In this document: one piece after another, positions 5,541 through 44,452 of the stretch
How the letters are laid out: the number at the start of each line of letters is the position of its first letter
How positions within the stretch are numbered: position 1 is the stretch's first letter
NCBI GenBank assembly: GCA_964563335.1
Contig: CAZLWL010000001.1
Coordinates: forward strand, 9,946 to 73,945
Direction: 5' to 3'
DNA length: 64,000 bases
Origin: an uncultured Pirellulales bacterium
Lineage (GTDB): Bacteria; Planctomycetota; Phycisphaerae; Sedimentisphaerales; Anaerohalosphaeraceae
The notes under the pieces: generated by a model
Seen by the model: the letters and a program-made list of their open reading frames with translations, nothing else
Databases searched by the model: none
What the model was told of the DNA's origin: nothing
Program-made: the position numbers and the translations under genes

Positions 5541-6629
5541 ATGATAAAGATAATTTGCGTATGTGGTGCCCGGCCTAATTTTATGAAGGTTGCGCCCGTT
5601 ATGAGAGCATTCGAGGCAAAAGGGGGGTTCGAGGTCCTTTTAGTTCATACAGGCCAGCACTACGATGAGAATATGAGCAAGCTCTTTTTCGATGAGCTTG
5701 ATATCCCCCGGCCGGATATAAATCTGGAGGTCGGCTCGGCAAGCCATGCGGTTCAAACAGCTCAGATTATGAAGCGTTTCGAGCCGGTGGTGCTGGATTT
5801 TCGACCTGATTATGTCCTGGTTGTGGGGGATGTTAATAGCACGATTGCGTGTGGTTTAGTAGCGGTTAAGTTAGGCATTAAACTCATACACGTTGAAGCC
5901 GGCCTGCGAAGCTTCGACCGAACGATGCCGGAGGAGATTAATCGTGTGCTGACGGATGCGATAAGCGATTTGCTGTTTGTAACCGAGCAGTCCGGACTTG
6001 ACAATCTCAGCAATGAAGGGATCGACGCGGCCAAGGTGCATTTTGTCGGCAATGTTATGATTGATACGCTGATGGCACACAGGGCCAGGGCCGAGAAGTC
6101 AGATGTTTTGGAGCGGTTAGGGCTTTCGTCTAAAGAATACGCGGTGATCACATTGCACAGGCCGAGCAATGTTGATGACATGAGGACATTTGGGGAAATA
6201 ATCACGGCGTTTGAAGAAATGGGCAAAGAGATGAAGCTGGTTTTCCCGATTCATCCGCGGACGAGGGATAATGTTAAGGGCAGCGAGCTCGAGAGACGGA
6301 TGGAGAGGCTGGCGAATCTTATCTTACTCGAGCCGGCCGGATATGTGGACTTTTTGTGTCTGATGAGCAATGCTGCTCTGGTGCTGACGGACTCGGGCGG
6401 GATACAGGAGGAGACGACGATACTGGGTGTGCCGTGTATGACACTGCGTGAAAATACGGAGCGGCCGGTAACAATTACGGAGGGTACGAATCGACTTGTG
6501 CATGTAACAGCTAAGGATATTCTGAGAAATTATCGCCAAATCAGGAATGGGGGCGTAGATAGTGGCCACAGCATTCCGAGGTTATGGGACGGCAAGTCCG
6601 CCCAGAGGATTGCCGGAATTATAATCTAA
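5541..6629 (+). CDS. wecB: UDP-N-acetylglucosamine 2-epimerase (non-hydrolysing)
   Basis: 362 aa. CGARPNFMKVAPV, GDVNST, HVEAGLRSFDRTMPEEINR and LTDSGGIQEE are hallmark motifs. Confidence 0.85.
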   Translation: MIKIICVCGARPNFMKVAPVMRAFEAKGGFEVLLVHTGQHYDENMSKLFFDELDIPRPDINLEVGSASHAVQTAQIMKRFEPVVLDFRPDYVLVVGDVNSTIACGLVAVKLGIKLIHVEAGLRSFDRTMPEEINRVLTDAISDLLFVTEQSGLDNLSNEGIDAAKVHFVGNVMIDTLMAHRARAEKSDVLERLGLSSKEYAVITLHRPSNVDDMRTFGEIITAFEEMGKEMKLVFPIHPRTRDNVKGSELERRMERLANLILLEPAGYVDFLCLMSNAALVLTDSGGIQEETTILGVPCMTLRENTERPVTITEGTNRLVHVTAKDILRNYRQIRNGGVDSGHSIPRLWDGKSAQRIAGIII

Positions 6630-6898
6630 GCGTGAAGTGGGCCGAACAATCCGCCGATATACACGTAAATAAAGCTATACTTTACACTTATGGCAAATAA
6701 GTATGGTTCTGATTATCTCGGTGTAGTTCTCGAAATCTGCGTTTCATAACAGCGATAACATGTGCAAAATCAGCGCCTAATTGCACCCGACAGGGACGGA
6801 GTCCAAATAATCTTCGTGTCCCAAAATTTGTTTTTGCTTCATTTCCCACAAATAGCTTTAGATAAGTCCCAAAAACCTCGAAGATATTACGTGAAGTT

Positions 6899-40563: not shown

Positions 40564-42330
40564 TTAGACACATATTTTCTGTGACGCTTCGACGCAGTTG
40601 CTCAGATCTTCATTCGGATAGCGTCTTTGCATCGCCGCGGCAACCAGGCCGACAAACATCGGGTGGGGCCGAAGCGGACGCGAGGTAAAACACGGATGTG
40701 CCTGGGTCCCCATGAAAAACAGATGTGACGGTATCTCTAAAATCTGCATAATCGGCTGATTCGACGCCTTGCCCGAAAAGACAAGGCCGCCCGCTTCAAG
40801 CCGCTCGATATAGCGAGGGTCAACTTCATACCTGTGCCGGAACCGCATCCGGACAGAGTCGGCCTTGCCGAACAACTCCCACGCCAGGGTAACTCGCTTA
40901 AGCTCTACATCCCTGCCGCCCAGCCGCATGTTGCCGCCAAGCCCTTCTATCTTCTTTTGCTCGGGCAGAATGTCTATCACACGCTCGGTGCATTGTGAGT
41001 CAAGCTCGCCGCTGCCTGCATCTTCGAGTCCGCAAACATTGCGGGCAAATTCTATCACCGCCATCTGAAAGCCAAAGCAAAGCCCCAGATAGGGGACGTT
41101 ATTCTCTCTTGCGTACTTTATGCACGCAATCTTGCCCTCAGTACCCCGCGTTCCAAACCCGCCGGGCACGATTATGCCGTCGATACCGTCCAGATGGGCG
41201 GCGACATTGTTGTCCGTCACCTGTGTTGTTTCAATCCATTTGATATTTATTCTGCAGCCGAGCGCAATGCCGGAATGCTCAATGGCCTTGATTATCGATG
41301 CGTAGCTGTCGCGAACAGATGTGTACTTGCCCGTTATTCCAACCGTTACCTCGTGGGTCTCGGCTCCAATTTTGTCAACAAAATCACACCACCTCGCCCA
41401 TGCCCTGCGCTCATAACGCAGGTTGATTCTGTTCTCAATCTTTAACATCCGAAGCACCTCAAAGTCCAGTCCGCAATCCCGCAGCATCGACGGTATCATA
41501 TAGACGCTTGCCGAGTCATGCATACTGAAGACCCGCTCCAAAGGCACATTGCTGAAGACGCTTATCTTCTGCCTGACCTTATCACCGACGGGGCTCTCGG
41601 CCCTGCACGCGATAATATCCGGCTGAATACCCATCTGCATCATTTGCTTGATACCTAACTGGGCCGCCTTGGATTTCTGCTCGCCGAGGGTCTTGGGCTC
41701 CAGTATGTAAGTAAGCCCCACGAAACAACAGCTTGTAGGCCCTTCCTCGTATGCCAGCTCGCGCATCGCCTCGATATAGAACGCGTTTTCCAGGTCACCG
41801 ACCGTGCCGCCCAACTCGACAAAGACGATATCGGCATCGGTTTCCATGGCCAGGTGCCGAAGTTTCAGCTTGACCTCGCCGGTAACATGCGGAATCATCT
41901 GAACATCCCGGCCGAGGTAATCACCGTGACGCTCCTTGTCCAAAATGGACCGGTATATCTGCCCGCTCGTCGTAAAATTCGCTGTTGTTAAGTTCTGGTC
42001 CAGCATCCGCTCATACGTGCCAAGGTCCATGTCGCACTCCATGCCGTCGTCTAACACGAATACCTCGCCGTGGCGGAATGGATTCAGCGTCCCCGAATCG
42101 ATGTTCAGGTAACCCTCAAGTTTGATGGGCGTAACCTTCAGACCCTTATCCTGCATGAGCTTGGCCAGACACGAAGAAAATATCCCCTTGCCCAATCCGC
42201 TCATCACGGTACCCATCACCACGACGTACTTGGTCTTGCCTTTTTTGTATCCATCAGGTATCGGCGAAAAGTACTCCGTATCCGTCGAAACGTCGCTGAC
42301 GCTGGCCAACAAATCTTTGCTATTGCTCAT
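40564..42330 (-). CDS. pyrG: CTP synthase
   Basis: 588 aa. It has KYVVVMGTVMSGLGKG, the GATase region GLCFGFQMAVIEFARN and HRYEV. It carries an N-terminal extension of about 30 aa. Confidence 0.95.
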   Translation of the reverse strand: MSNSKDLLASVSDVSTDTEYFSPIPDGYKKGKTKYVVVMGTVMSGLGKGIFSSCLAKLMQDKGLKVTPIKLEGYLNIDSGTLNPFRHGEVFVLDDGMECDMDLGTYERMLDQNLTTANFTTSGQIYRSILDKERHGDYLGRDVQMIPHVTGEVKLKLRHLAMETDADIVFVELGGTVGDLENAFYIEAMRELAYEEGPTSCCFVGLTYILEPKTLGEQKSKAAQLGIKQMMQMGIQPDIIACRAESPVGDKVRQKISVFSNVPLERVFSMHDSASVYMIPSMLRDCGLDFEVLRMLKIENRINLRYERRAWARWCDFVDKIGAETHEVTVGITGKYTSVRDSYASIIKAIEHSGIALGCRINIKWIETTQVTDNNVAAHLDGIDGIIVPGGFGTRGTEGKIACIKYARENNVPYLGLCFGFQMAVIEFARNVCGLEDAGSGELDSQCTERVIDILPEQKKIEGLGGNMRLGGRDVELKRVTLAWELFGKADSVRMRFRHRYEVDPRYIERLEAGGLVFSGKASNQPIMQILEIPSHLFFMGTQAHPCFTSRPLRPHPMFVGLVAAAMQRRYPNEDLSNCVEASQKICV

Positions 42331-42377
42331 TTACTCTCCTGTTATTTCCTGCCATAGAAATTATTCATTTTTTATTT

Positions 42378-42408
42378 TAGCCACAGAGGGCACAGAGAAC
42401 ACAGAGAA
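42378..42408. repeat. 31-nt (NNCTCTGTG)x3-GCTA element, copy A (inverted relative to B and C)
   Basis: The plus strand reads tagccacagagggcacagagaacacagagaa. Its reverse complement is ttctctgtgttctctgtgccctctgtggcta. Confidence 0.85.
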
Positions 42409-42439
42409 TATTTCCTTATTCATGCTTAAAGAGCAAGAA

Positions 42440-43228
42440 TCAATTCTCCATATTAAAAACGACTTCGCGCAAAGCCAATGTTTCCATAAGACTCGGTTCC
42501 GAACCGAATAGCGAGTACGCCGTAATATTCATTGAATCCAATTCTTTAAGCACCTTCTGCCGCTCTGAGATGGGGATGTCATATCTAATCAGAACCCCCT
42601 GGCCTTCAACATCCTCTTTGACTTCTTCATGATTAGCAAAATAAATCTCATCCTCTTCTTTTCTAAAACAAATTGTATACTCGCTTTGCTGTAGATAGTG
42701 TGTCCGGAAAGTTTTTATTGAAGAACCCAGTCGCCAAATAGACGGGCTCCCTTCGCACATAACATCTCCCCTATGTACAAAAATCGAAGCATGTTCTGCT
42801 TTAGAATACACATCTCCAAAAGCGAAAAAAGCGGCTATGTATGGGGATTTAGTCCAGTCTATTAAAGGACTTGGGAATCCATTGTGTCTTAAATACACCA
42901 TAAACTCGTAAACCGACAACGGCAAATCAAACCCTCCGAGGAATATCTTTGGCTCCTTTGTTTCCAGATCCCATTTCCTGCCGGTGCAGGTTGCAATGTG
43001 GTCGCGAACAATTTTTACTTTTGTGATATAGTCCGAACGCTTCATTTCCTTCTTTATCCTATCGAGGGTTGATTCAAGATGATATTCGGCATTTTTTACT
43101 CCTCTAAAAATGGGATATTCCACACGGCTTAGCTTTCCTTCCTGTTGCAGCACCGTGGTCTGATCACTTATCGTGACCAATTCTCTTTCAAAGTCTTCCC
43201 AAGTATTAAGTTGTATTGGTTCTTTCAT
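42440..43228 (-). CDS. FRG-domain protein
   Basis: 262 aa. It has the YPIFRGVKNAEYHLESTLDR (FRG motif), then LRHNGFPSPLIDWT, typical of the family. Confidence 0.7.
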   Translation of the reverse strand: MKEPIQLNTWEDFERELVTISDQTTVLQQEGKLSRVEYPIFRGVKNAEYHLESTLDRIKKEMKRSDYITKVKIVRDHIATCTGRKWDLETKEPKIFLGGFDLPLSVYEFMVYLRHNGFPSPLIDWTKSPYIAAFFAFGDVYSKAEHASIFVHRGDVMCEGSPSIWRLGSSIKTFRTHYLQQSEYTICFRKEEDEIYFANHEEVKEDVEGQGVLIRYDIPISERQKVLKELDSMNITAYSLFGSEPSLMETLALREVVFNMEN

Positions 43229-43259
43229 CGTATCGACCGCTTAACAACTAAAATCTTTT

Positions 43260-43290
43260 TTCTCTGTGACCTCTGTGCCCTCTGTGGCTA
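43260..43290. repeat. 31-nt (NNCTCTGTG)x3-GCTA element, copy B
   Basis: The sequence is ttctctgtgacctctgtgccctctgtggcta. It lies between the FRG and GxxExxY genes and ends exactly at the stop codon of the GxxExxY gene. Confidence 0.85.
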
Positions 43291-43656
43291 TCAAAGAGCA
43301 ACACGTTTAATGCCGTCGACCAGTCGCTTTTCACCGAAGTTCACTATCAGCCCTCGTCTGAGGTTTGTCGCCTTGAGATAGGAAAGAGTCTGGGCCAGGG
43401 CGACTTCAGGAAGCTTGGACAACGATTTAATTTCCACAACTACCTCATTCTCGACAAGAATATCTATCTTCTGGCCTTTGATAACTTTGCCTTTGTAGAT
43501 AATATCAGCAGGCGCTTGCCTTTTGTACTTTATTCCCTGCAGGTCAAATTCATAGCGCAGGGCTTCCTCATAAATCGACTCAAGGAGTCCGGGGCCAAGC
43601 TCTCGATGAACCTCGATAGCCGCACCAATTATTTTTTCTGTCAACTCGTCAGACAT
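43291..43656 (-). CDS. GxxExxY protein (PD-(D/E)XK-fold family)
   Basis: 121 aa, with IIGAAIEVHRELGPGLLESIYEEAL, then DILVENEVVVEIKS and RRGLIVNFG. Confidence 0.85.
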   Translation of the reverse strand: MSDELTEKIIGAAIEVHRELGPGLLESIYEEALRYEFDLQGIKYKRQAPADIIYKGKVIKGQKIDILVENEVVVEIKSLSKLPEVALAQTLSYLKATNLRRGLIVNFGEKRLVDGIKRVAL

Positions 43657-43666
43657 TTTCTTTTTT

Positions 43667-43697
43667 TTCTCTGTGACCTCTGTGTTCTCTGTGGCTA
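43667..43697. repeat. 31-nt (NNCTCTGTG)x3-GCTA element, copy C
   Basis: The sequence is ttctctgtgacctctgtgttctctgtggcta. An extra partial unit, ctctgtggct, at 43714-43723 encodes the last residues of KdsB. Confidence 0.85.
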
Positions 43698-43702
43698 AAA
43701 AA

Positions 43703-44452
43703 TCACTTGTTTACTCTGTGGCTGTTTTTATATCTTTTCACAAACTCCGCGTATTGCTCGGGAGTATCTATTCCCTCCCAGGCATGTTCTACTTTGCCGG
43801 TTATAATTGTAAAGCCATGCTCAATCGCACGCAGTTGCTCAAGCTTCTCACATTTTTCGAGCTCGCCCTGCGGCAGCGATGTAAACTTGAGCAGGAAATC
43901 TTTACGGTATGCATATATCCCAAGATGCCTCAGATACCTTGCCGTTTGTCCGACGCCGCCGGCCTGTCGGTCATACGGTATCACCGACCGCGAAAAGTAA
44001 ATCGCCCTGCCGTTCTTATCTACTATCACCTTGACGATATTCGGGTCGCTTATCTGTTCGCGGTTCTCAAACCGGGCCACTAACGTTGCCATATCCGCAT
44101 CACTTTTCCTCAGAAGTTCTACAAGTTCGTCGATATTGGCCGGGTCAATCTCCGGCTCGTCAGCCTGCAGATTTACGATTATTTTACAGTCAATATCACG
44201 CGCAGCCTCGGCGATACGGTCTGTCCCGCTCTGGTGAGCCGCCGAGGTCATAACGCAAGCCGCCCCGAAACTCGCGCAGGCCCCCATCACAAGCTCGCTG
44301 TCGGCCGCTATGAGCACCTTTTCGACGCTCTTGGCGCACAAGGCCCGCTCGTACGTATGTTGGACGAGGAATTTGCCGGTATCTTTGGCGAGAACTTTCC
44401 CCTCGAATCGACTTGACCCGTATCGAGCAGGTATTACAGCCAATACTTCCAC
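43703..44452 (-). CDS. kdsB: 3-deoxy-manno-octulosonate cytidylyltransferase (CMP-Kdo synthetase)
   Basis: 249 aa, with VIPARYGSSRFEGKVL, HQSGTDRIAEA and NLQADEPEI motifs. Confidence 0.9.
   Translation of the reverse strand: MEVLAVIPARYGSSRFEGKVLAKDTGKFLVQHTYERALCAKSVEKVLIAADSELVMGACASFGAACVMTSAAHQSGTDRIAEAARDIDCKIIVNLQADEPEIDPANIDELVELLRKSDADMATLVARFENREQISDPNIVKVIVDKNGRAIYFSRSVIPYDRQAGGVGQTARYLRHLGIYAYRKDFLLKFTSLPQGELEKCEKLEQLRAIEHGFTIITGKVEHAWEGIDTPEQYAEFVKRYKNSHRVNK

Follow-up and report, generated by a model that had tools for sequence, protein, structure and literature searches.

Heptamer arrays around a constant GxxExxY gene and a variable cargo gene in housekeeping operons of Planctomycetota

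In a 64-kb stretch of DNA from an uncultured planctomycete (the window, by which we mean the whole stretch), the housekeeping genes kdsB and pyrG are separated by a gene of the GxxExxY (PDDEXK_3) family, a gene for an FRG-domain protein, and three arrays of a heptamer that reads CACAGAG on one strand and CTCTGTG on the other. In relatives of this locus the GxxExxY gene stays constant while the gene beside it varies, and we therefore call the variable gene the cargo. Our favoured reading, which we hold to be evenly poised between right and wrong, is that positions 42350–43723 hold a modular insertion, other copies of which occur in Phycisphaerae-type Planctomycetota, and that its arrays are the cognate sites of GxxExxY. 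An earlier reading of the letters alone (the sequence-only reading) had described three 31-nt elements, forming an inverted pair around the FRG gene and a direct pair around the GxxExxY gene, with one copy at the GxxExxY stop codon, another 10 nt before its start codon, and a fourth partial unit within the last codons of kdsB. All of this was recovered exactly from the sequence, and profile searches bore out the identities assigned to the GxxExxY, FRG, kdsB and pyrG genes (Table 1).

Architecture of the module

Within the window, the three 31-nt arrays, of the form (NNCTCTGTG)x3-GCTA, are restricted to the interval between kdsB and pyrG. The 16-mer CTCTGTGNNCTCTGTG has six overlapping matches, all at 42382–43693, compared with 0.25 expected and with none of 100 shuffles reaching six, and 10 of the window's 12 CTCTGTG heptamers fall at 42382–43720. 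Read on the plus strand, array A carries CACAGAG and arrays B and C carry CTCTGTG; A and B, separated by 851 nt, are inverted copies with 94% complementarity over 31 nt, and B and C form a 40-nt direct pair (90% identical). All four genes lie on the minus strand; along the coding strand, kdsB comes first and is followed by array C, GxxExxY, array B, FRG, array A (in the opposite polarity) and pyrG. Array C opens with TAGCCACAGAG and terminates 10 nt ahead of the GxxExxY ATG, array B adjoins the GxxExxY stop codon directly (TGA followed by TAGCC), and array A finishes in ..CTCTGTGGCTA. Together with two single outer units, of which the right one is degenerate and lies ~20 nt ahead of the Shine–Dalgarno sequence and ATG of pyrG, the arrays frame a mirror-symmetric module that can be written unit-array(+), GxxExxY, array(+), FRG, array(–)-unit. 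Array B consists of an outer unit fused straight onto a triple array, the spacer present in a relative (L155) being absent here. The T-run on the left flank of the module and the A-run on its right continue the inverted repeat and do not amount to a direct duplication.

The window GxxExxY protein has relatives in well over 100 distinct 90%-identity clusters at 79–94% identity, all ~121 amino acids long, and we took 80 loci containing such close relatives from metagenomes for comparison (genes in these loci were called by longest-open-reading-frame heuristics). About 70 of 74 close relatives had an array, an A-rich stretch and the ATG upstream, and the stop codon, TAGCCACAGAG, a spacer and an array downstream. 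The upstream composite opens with one outer unit (TTAGCCACAGAG) and a brief spacer, continues with TTTTAGC-(CACAGAG-NN)x3 and an A-rich 10–13 nt, and leads into the ATG; the array downstream is again a triple one. All of the long loci follow the scheme X(+), array(+), GxxExxY, array(+), Y(+), array(–), Z(+), in which X and Z are the junction partners and Y is the cargo, and the module closes on the right with a mirror image of its left side, array(–)-GGCTAAAA-spacer-CTCTGTGGC. Across 197 distinct arrays the consensus was TTTTAGC(CACAGAGNN)x3, also written TTTTAGC-CACAGAG-RR-CACAGAG-RN-CACAGAG, with a 9-nt period; heptamer positions were 99.5% consensus (a figure to be read with the one mismatch allowed when arrays were defined) compared with 52% for the linkers, and 550 of the 591 heptamers were exact. 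The 7-mer itself is under selection.

These modules occupy at least eight housekeeping junctions across ~70 metagenomic relatives, comprising argD–argF (21 loci), a junction between an Asp/Asn/Lys-type tRNA synthetase and an ftsX-like gene (8 loci), kdsB–pyrG, LeuRS–CYTH, and at least four more, and ~90% of them are co-directional with both neighbours. The cargo belongs to at least 20 unrelated families, at least 12 of which occur at argD–argF alone, and the families c2, c3, c7 and c12 were each found at several junctions. Where two loci share a junction and differ in cargo (L164 and L165), homology stops 6 nt past the plus array and resumes 3 nt before the minus array; where two loci share a cargo and differ in junction (L165 and L132), homology begins only 8 nt ahead of the first array and is lost 37 nt beyond the last one. 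With homology breaking within a few nucleotides of the arrays, the repeats do sit at cassette boundaries, as the sequence-only reading had it. Its picture of two equivalent captured cassettes had to be given up, because in ~70 loci GxxExxY is the constant component and variation is limited to the second gene, the cargo.

Less common arrangements followed the same rule, in that GxxExxY was always found within a duplicated array or between inverted arrays, and cargo between inverted arrays. One relative (L128) has cargo between a plus and a minus array without GxxExxY; L205, L200 and a Bacteroides radA site have GxxExxY alone between inverted arrays; and L206, L207 and L345 have the order array(+), cargo, array(–), GxxExxY, array(–), with GxxExxY in the right arm between two minus arrays. 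In L110 (Pirellulales) the whole hairpin is duplicated on either side of GxxExxY, and in L065 an internally deleted GxxExxY gene between the arms makes up a 135-nt hairpin spacer. GxxExxY therefore occurs in either orientation relative to its flanking arrays: two plus arrays are typical, two minus arrays are found in L206, L207, L344 and L345, and a plus and a minus array in Bacteroides.

The arrays can also amplify. Four tandem copies of a ~41-nt array unit occur without genes at L184 3396–3545, and amplified arrays are listed as well for L088 703–1131, L007 5621–5699 and L116 345–414. A Chitinophaga metagenome-assembled genome (MAG) has eight alternating arrays, and some single arrays with 8–9 identical units point to slippage.

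A layout of repeat, gene, repeat, with single-gene cassettes exchanged at the repeats, recalls integrons, an analogy drawn in the sequence-only reading, and clusters of attC sites that lack an integrase are known. The likeness extends, in functional terms only, to the same cassette being found on different platforms and different cassettes on one platform, to the enrichment of accessory and defence cargo, and, by analogy, to expression of the cassettes from an upstream promoter. Nevertheless, we found no recombinase linked in any locus examined, in agreement with the sequence-only reading; specifically, there was no integrase-family Pfam match among called genes within 3–6 kb at the at least 25 loci searched, which included L121–L128 and neighbours of modules (the scan covered these genes and not every protein of the 64-kb window). 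The adjacent IntI that defines an integron platform is thus missing from the called genes, and so is the second defining feature, attC, with its R''-L''...L'-R' arrangement and GTTRRRY core: a single array is a direct tandem repeat without a local inverted partner, not an imperfect palindrome with R and L boxes. Moreover, inverted arrays bound the cassettes on either side in place of one 3' attC, a site usually holds a single cargo, the platforms are scattered in housekeeping operons and not gathered at one attI, and the constantly linked gene encodes a PD-(D/E)XK protein. An integron-like system, in which the arrays would be attC-like sites for a tyrosine or serine recombinase encoded elsewhere, is thus largely refuted, and we consider it exceedingly improbable. 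We likewise found no transposase domain in or beside the modules, and no target-site duplication except the array itself.

Table 1. Features of the module and its two neighbouring genes, with positions in the window.
Feature	Position	Strand	Remarks
Left outer unit, AGCCACAGAG (coding strand)	43714–43723	–	Inside the last kdsB codons (SHRV; protein ends ..NSHRVNK-stop)
Array C, TAGC-CACAGAG-AA-CACAGAG-GT-CACAGAG-AA (coding strand)	43667–43697	–	T-run before; A-rich 10 nt and GxxExxY ATG after
GxxExxY / PDDEXK_3, 121 amino acids; constant module gene; predicted minimal PD-(D/E)XK fold	43291–43656	–	Profiles, structure model
Array B	43260–43290	–	Directly after GxxExxY stop; its end bounds the cargo cassette on the left
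Cargo gene, FRG-domain protein, 262 amino acids, PDC-S15 match	42440–43228	–	60% identical to L128 ortholog at the same site
Array A, inverted copy, CTCTGTG on coding strand, ends GGCTAAAA	42378–42408	+	Bounds the cargo cassette on the right
Right outer unit, degenerate, TTCTATGGCA (coding strand)	42350–42359 (approximate)	+	Right module end; L128 homolog CTCTGTGGCA
kdsB, upstream housekeeping gene (junction partner X)	43703–44452	–	3' end rewritten by module
pyrG, downstream housekeeping gene (junction partner Z)	40564–42330	–	Profile and comparison with relatives

History of the kdsB–pyrG site and age of GxxExxY

Homologs of the window KdsB mark its source as a Phycisphaerae-like planctomycete. 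The sequence-only reading had taken the interval between kdsB and pyrG for an insertion and the site for a hotspot, and both claims gained support from close relatives. In L122 and L123, whose KdsB is 90% identical to that of the window by BLASTP (91% over ungapped columns) and whose PyrG is 96% identical, kdsB overlaps pyrG by 11 nt and there are no arrays, which provides the empty site. On a tree of KdsB the empty-site genome is the nearest neighbour of the window and is nested among occupied ones, with patchy occupancy, implying that the site has been altered several times. Among relatives it is empty or contains a gene for a GH127-family glycosidase (L124 6811–9150, L125 6749–9151 and L128 6815–9211), FRG plus GH127, or GxxExxY plus DUF5677; in L127 (1378–1511) just the final ~100 nt of the GH127 gene is left. 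None of the other known module junctions is present in its empty state within the window.

The comparison of this interval among relatives, which the sequence-only reading had proposed as a check, thus turned up the empty site, and it also indicated that the FRG gene is an old resident. L128 has the order kdsB, FRG, GH127, pyrG, and its FRG protein is 60% identical to that of the window; its FRG gene has a degenerate array homolog upstream (TTTTTTAGCCACAAAGGGCACAGATAACAGAGAAAAAG) and, downstream, just one unit (CTCTGTGGCGTAA) in place of the window's three. The gene is old here, being common to the window, L155 and L128 at 60% identity, with homologous degenerate arrays. In L155, L181 and L187 kdsB is followed by GxxExxY, and L187 has a DUF5677 gene in place of FRG. 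The first codons of the L128 GH127 gene (MSNSKNL) match those of the window pyrG (MSNSKDL; 42316–42330), indicating that the 5' leader and start were duplicated at this junction.

We also considered whether the repeat had been derived from the 3' end of kdsB, as the sequence-only reading had suggested from the fourth unit there. In module-free relatives, kdsB ends earlier than in the window (..KKG, ..KNR or ..KNG before the stop), which shows that the outer unit overwrote the kdsB terminus and did not spawn the repeat, ruling out this origin. At the kdsB 3' end of L122 (~6722–6757), five tandem 7-nt units (CAGAAGT CAGAGGA CAGAAGT CAGAAAA CAGAGGT) encode a 10-amino-acid extension of KdsB that overlaps the pyrG ATG; they resemble CACAGAGNN units minus 'CA' and could be a scar from module loss. 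In a 99%-identical strain (L121, JGI 3300028837) the 3' part of kdsB, array C and the 5' part of GxxExxY are absent at 6540–6545, with TGC microhomology at the junction, and there is a second deletion inside pyrG (~7920); these deletions are either an assembly artefact or a population variant.

The many near-identical GxxExxY relatives raised the possibility of recent horizontal spread, which was refuted by four-fold degenerate sites as saturated as those of the neighbouring genes. For 91 pairs of loci at the argD site, the median identity at four-fold sites was 0.46 for both GxxExxY and ArgD, and the amino-acid identity was 0.90 for GxxExxY compared with 0.83 for ArgD. Silent-site divergence like that of the neighbour, combined with higher protein identity, indicates that GxxExxY is old and under strong purifying selection, with no recent arrival. 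In the closest genome pairs GxxExxY was more diverged at silent sites than its neighbour (for L140 and L170, identity was 0.79 for ArgD, n = 173, and 0.52 for GxxExxY, n = 46), which is the pattern expected of replacement by recombination. The heptamers were ~99% conserved despite this saturation of silent sites.

GxxExxY proteins, cargo and arrays across phyla

The window GxxExxY protein matched TIGR04256 over its full length (136.8 bits, cut-off 35; E = 3.9e-40) and PF13366 (131.2 bits, cut-off 22; E = 2.9e-38). E26, E75 and K77 never vary, D65 is conserved to at least 90%, and an AlphaFold 2 (AF2) model predicts a minimal PD-(D/E)XK core. The top Foldseek matches, all of them weak, were Cas4 SSO0001, lambda exonuclease, RecU, Hjc and tRNA-splicing endonuclease, and we found no sequence homolog in the PDB. 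The family is very large, with 19,667 representative clusters (at 50% identity) at E ≤ 1e-3, and a 2012 survey listed its function as unknown and noted 'multiple transfers' (PMC3424549). Some members are tandem fusions of two GxxExxY domains (P0361–P0363, P0366, P0367 and others; 250–295 amino acids with two matched stretches), which would fit a dimer acting on repeated sites.

The FRG protein of the window matched PF08867 (E = 2.8e-16) and the PADLOC candidate single-gene defence system PDC-S15 (PDLC04937, E = 5.9e-30). The FRG domain has been described as a putative NADase effector of the ART superfamily (PMC9503650), and the protein is a candidate anti-phage-type effector. Cargo elsewhere included a second FRG/PDC-S15 family (at argD–argF), SIR2-like and TIR-effector-like proteins, T5orf172/MUG113 with an HNH-repeat, HNH-repeat proteins, DUF5677, and one family with a weak OGG-like match; many cargo genes matched nothing, and most of the cargo families lack annotation. 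The sequence-only reading did not recognise the repeat as a described element, and in the searchable literature we found no description of it, of its pairing with GxxExxY/PDDEXK_3, or of the Phycisphaerae cassettes.

More distant GxxExxY genes are also associated with repeats. All eight plasmid-borne homologs at 32–45% identity lie inside a repeat element, with co-directional annotated neighbours. In Bacteroides finegoldii, GxxExxY stands between radA and a gene for an FAD protein, with TTCACCACAGAG-GA-CGCAGAG-GA-CACGGAG upstream and CTCTGTG-AC-CTCTGTG-TC-CTCTGTGGTGAA downstream, and in Bacteroidota the radA site with GxxExxY is kept from 90% down to 63% identity. A Bernardetia GxxExxY has CACAGAG units upstream and CTCTGTG units downstream, that of Gemmatirosa has hairpins of CGCAGAG/CTCTGCG x3 on either side, and that of Sphingomonas, between fabD and fabG, has a 9-nt array of CGCGARG at its ATG. 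In a Bacteroidota V-ATPase operon (between subunits B and D), CTTCGTG x3-GTGAA lies on either side of GxxExxY, and further Bacteroidota loci include one with CACAGAT/ATCTGTG arrays and a polysaccharide locus with many CTCTGTG..GTGAA arrays. Pirellulales GxxExxY genes are likewise found with the same or variant arrays; among the distant genes the association extends to Bacteroidota and Gemmatimonadota and is weaker in Alphaproteobacteria.

Across these loci the heptamer differs by lineage (CGCAGAG, CACGAAG, CACAGAT and CGCGAAG are variants found near GxxExxY), the tail is kept, and so in most is the 9-nt period (it is 10–11 nt in L342 and irregular in Bernardetia), a pattern that suggests lineage-specific co-evolution of the repeat and the GxxExxY protein. 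The full set of variant heptamers comprised CTTCGTG/CACGAAG, CACAGAT (10–11-nt period, L342), CGCAGAG, CGCGAAG, ATCTGCG (10-nt period), CACCAAG and CTCCGTG, at L345 (~1270–1500 and 1873–1935), L342, L211, L213, L106, L117, L024 and L041. The Sphingomonas case (L213 1471–1899, Sphingomonas parapaucimobilis NZ_CP155749.1) has GxxExxY inserted in the otherwise universally conserved fabD-fabG-acpP-fabF operon, its stop codon 2 nt from the fabG start. In Treponema saccharophilum pTS1 (L212 1906–2982), the repeat around GxxExxY is an 11-nt inverted one unrelated to the arrays, and a Fic-family gene comes next; GxxExxY and this gene may be a further pair of GxxExxY plus effector outside Planctomycetota.

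When we instead searched for the array itself, using the triple heptamer (21 specified bases) in a 596-Gb collection of species-representative genomes for which our own arithmetic gives ~0.3 chance matches, we obtained at least 120 loci. The matches listed, to which the counts in this paragraph refer, span Planctomycetota, Chloroflexota, Acidobacteriota, Pseudomonadota, Thermodesulfobacteriota, Bacteroidota, Cyanobacteriota, Bacillota, Verrucomicrobiota, Chlamydiota and others, and share a conserved tail, G(C/T)(T/G/A)AA, after the motif. Among ~100 neighbouring array pairs, 71 consist of a CACAGAG array, a 4–250-nt spacer and a CTCTGTG array with the tails outside, so that the dominant paired arrangement is a long interrupted palindrome of the same polarity. 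These hairpins are intergenic, between convergent (29), co-directional (42) or divergent (5 of 76) neighbours, and several MAGs have 2–3 heptamer loci each. The arrays do not bracket accessory genes everywhere, the bracketed genes of other phyla encoding E1-beta, ADH, an OmpR-type regulator and UvrD, nor do they always accompany GxxExxY, which tblastn and profile searches placed near two of 120 cross-phylum loci (L110 and L065).

In IMG/VR at least 120 stretches carry arrays, including a bona fide phage contig; we found no close GxxExxY relatives in viral contigs. One IMG/VR contig with arrays and the same tails encodes a phage metallopeptidase (L240 9556–13341), and in another (L257 453–13750) almost all intergenic gaps contain such hairpins and none of the proteins has a Pfam match.

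The heptamer family thus behaves like repetitive extragenic palindromic (REP) sequences and bacterial interspersed mosaic elements (BIMEs) in those other lineages, which bears on whether the arrays are passive. They could be REP-like hairpins, serving as mRNA stabilisers or host-protein sites and providing 25–75 nt of homology, in which GxxExxY is an unrelated selfish or defence gene that lodges there, with cargo turning over by RecA-mediated exchange. The proximity of the hairpins to housekeeping genes in other phyla, their bias for 3' ends, their multiple copies per MAG and their presence in most gaps of L257 all speak for this idea, as does the lack of a linked recombinase, and GxxExxY (366 bp, 80–94% amino-acid identity) and the arrays could be used as homology arms. 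We nonetheless judge passive repeats improbable. Outside the modules, the window's clade has practically no arrays (2.40 per kb in modules of close relatives compared with 0.042 per kb in 192 kb of flanks, a 57-fold difference), as in the window itself, where all three lie in the module; the gene–repeat association extends across phyla, with lineage-specific heptamers that keep their period and tail as if by co-evolution; purifying selection on GxxExxY is stronger than on its housekeeping neighbours; and the heptamers have been kept through saturated silent-site divergence. The sequence-only reading had allowed that the element might prove to be a generic intergenic REP, and this proved half true: inverted doublets, multiple copies and depletion from divergent regions are found in other phyla and not in the window's clade, where arrays keep to the modules.

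Models for array function

In the favoured reading, the module is an outer unit with array(+), GxxExxY, a further outer unit with array(+), cargo, and array(–) with its outer unit, transcribed along the interrupted housekeeping operon. The gene between the inverted arms, usually of the anti-phage-effector type, is exchanged precisely at the arrays. The comparisons show this layout and its borders, the reshuffling of cargo and junctions, the separate placement of GxxExxY in a duplicated array, a partnership of gene and repeat that is old, selected and cross-phylum, and the covariation of the arms. As for mechanism, GxxExxY would bind or cut the arrays, or the paired arms, and would promote both its own entry into an array, which would thereby come to lie on either side of it, and the replacement of the content between inverted arrays, with host recombination completing the event. 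The gene-less hairpins of other phyla would be non-autonomous or decayed derivatives. We infer that the enzyme at work is GxxExxY and that it acts at the DNA level; that the arrays are DNA-level recognition and recombination sites of a GxxExxY nuclease is a proposal with about even prospects. The variable polarity of the arrays around GxxExxY favours recognition of a double-stranded or symmetric site over a sense-strand RNA signal.

The arms of the module also covary. The complementarity of linkers between the plus array before the cargo and the minus array after it was 0.57, compared with 0.42 ± 0.03 in shuffles (none of 2000 reached it), and double-sided linker changes numbered 29 compared with 9.9 ± 4.2 (none of 500 shuffles), although relatedness of the sequences inflates both tests; one heptamer variant, in L175, was compensated. 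These results are the best support for an RNA device, which would work as follows. Sense CACAGAG and antisense CUCUGUG arrays would form an interrupted stem of ~30 bp, with the cargo, alone or together with GxxExxY, in its loop, and RNase III or GxxExxY would process the stem or array tag, insulating the operon and gating a toxic effector in the manner of a type-V toxin–antitoxin system or an rRNA intervening sequence, with cargo exchange as a by-product of homologous recombination. Folding the repeat region, a check suggested in the sequence-only reading, gave a minimum-free-energy structure in which array C pairs with A and the left outer unit with the right, and a centroid in which B pairs with A. 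The co-directionality of ~90% of the modules with their neighbours, the adjacency of arrays to start codons through an A-rich leader, the rarity of cross-phylum hairpins between divergent genes, and the tight control that NADase- or nuclease-type effectors would need are also in its favour.

Several observations fit such a device poorly, and we regard it as unlikely, albeit the main rival. Because arrays flank GxxExxY in either polarity, the transcribed sequence by the start codon is not constant, and the predicted pairing is a trivial consequence of complementarity. A covariance-model scan of 42200–43900 against Rfam gave no family match (two chance-level matches only, E ≥ 1); scans of the interval for sigma-70 promoters and intrinsic terminators were at or below shuffle expectation, with none at the arrays, where the polarity of the T-run and A-run is the reverse of that of a terminator. 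By itself, the RNA device leaves unexplained why homology breaks exactly at the arrays and why the array is duplicated around GxxExxY. The DNA-site model and the RNA device are mutually compatible.

A number of points weigh against the favoured reading. The linker covariation, between arms 0.3–1.3 kb apart, is most simply explained by pairing of a single strand (RNA), although conversion between the arms could account for it equally well, and about one-third of linker cells are unpaired. Synonymous sites are saturated, such that no recent transposition event was caught. The structural model of GxxExxY is just moderate, with a predicted local distance difference test (pLDDT) score of 76 and a template-modelling (TM) score of ~0.5. 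Four of the eight plasmid-borne distant homologs have other repeats and no heptamer arrays, as illustrated by the GxxExxY genes of Treponema, Fusobacteria, Prevotella and Persicobacter, which have other inverted or direct repeats. Lastly, no more than two of the 120 array-selected cross-phylum loci listed had GxxExxY nearby, one of them as a remnant (L065), and a GxxExxY remnant was recognised in the short hairpin spacer of that locus only, the remaining spacers being unrelated to each other.

Comparison with known systems sharpens what is distinctive. Like REP sequences and BIMEs with their REP-associated tyrosine transposases (RAYTs), the arrays form short intergenic inverted-doublet hairpins with a bias for 3' ends and operon gaps and multiple copies in some genomes, and they flank one dedicated, vertically inherited and conserved nuclease-type gene. 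REP sequences are 20–40-nt imperfect palindromes with a GTAG or CGTC tag (PMC3733652). By that definition the tandem 7-mers with their 9-nt period are not REPs. RAYTs are Y1 HUH (IS200/IS605-like) transposases, whereas GxxExxY has a 121-amino-acid PD-(D/E)XK fold by prediction, and here the arms enclose and exchange whole protein-coding genes. Miniature inverted-repeat transposable elements and their parent transposons share terminal inverted repeats, gene-bearing and gene-less versions, and deletion to a short hairpin as in L065; here, however, there is no recognisable transposase or classical target-site duplication, the ends are sub-repeat arrays with an outer unit, and most hairpins contain no gene remnant.

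In Leptospira and Coxiella, intervening sequences of 23S rRNA carry an open reading frame for the four-helix-bundle protein S23p between complementary ends and are excised by RNase III. They resemble the module in placing a small, selfish-looking open reading frame between long complementary arms within an essential transcribed unit, and the predicted stem of the module is a potential RNase III substrate; here the host is a protein-coding operon and the protein family is another, and any likeness in excision is by analogy. Chromosomal defence hotspots share a fixed core-gene junction with variable defence-type content between close relatives, although the known ones are usually integrase-bearing elements or multi-gene islands, unlike a ~1–2-kb two-gene module with its own repeat borders within operons. 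By analogy, the system most resembles a REP–RAYT partnership combined with integron-like cassette exchange, yet it lacks the defining features of either. There is a substantial chance that this nuclease-associated repeat element and cassette platform forms a class of its own.

More broadly, and tentatively, since we think it somewhat doubtful in full, GxxExxY/PDDEXK_3 proteins may be the dedicated nucleases of previously unrecognised cross-phylum heptamer-array elements, a PD-(D/E)XK counterpart of REP–RAYT, and the Phycisphaerae elements may have become a recombinase-free cassette platform that enters essential operons and swaps the anti-phage effector genes held within its inverted arrays. 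The modules give the very large GxxExxY family its first genomic context, and they account for the conservation of a 25–31-nt motif from Planctomycetota to Bacteroidota, Chloroflexota, Proteobacteria, Cyanobacteria and phages. A gene between inverted CACAGAG arrays beside GxxExxY provides a simple rule for harvesting candidate anti-phage genes. If the arrays are indeed the cognate sites of the nuclease, they would represent a new enzyme–repeat partnership and a new route for genes into operons without a classical recombinase, and a small sequence-specific nuclease with a modular 7-mer site would be of possible biotechnological interest.

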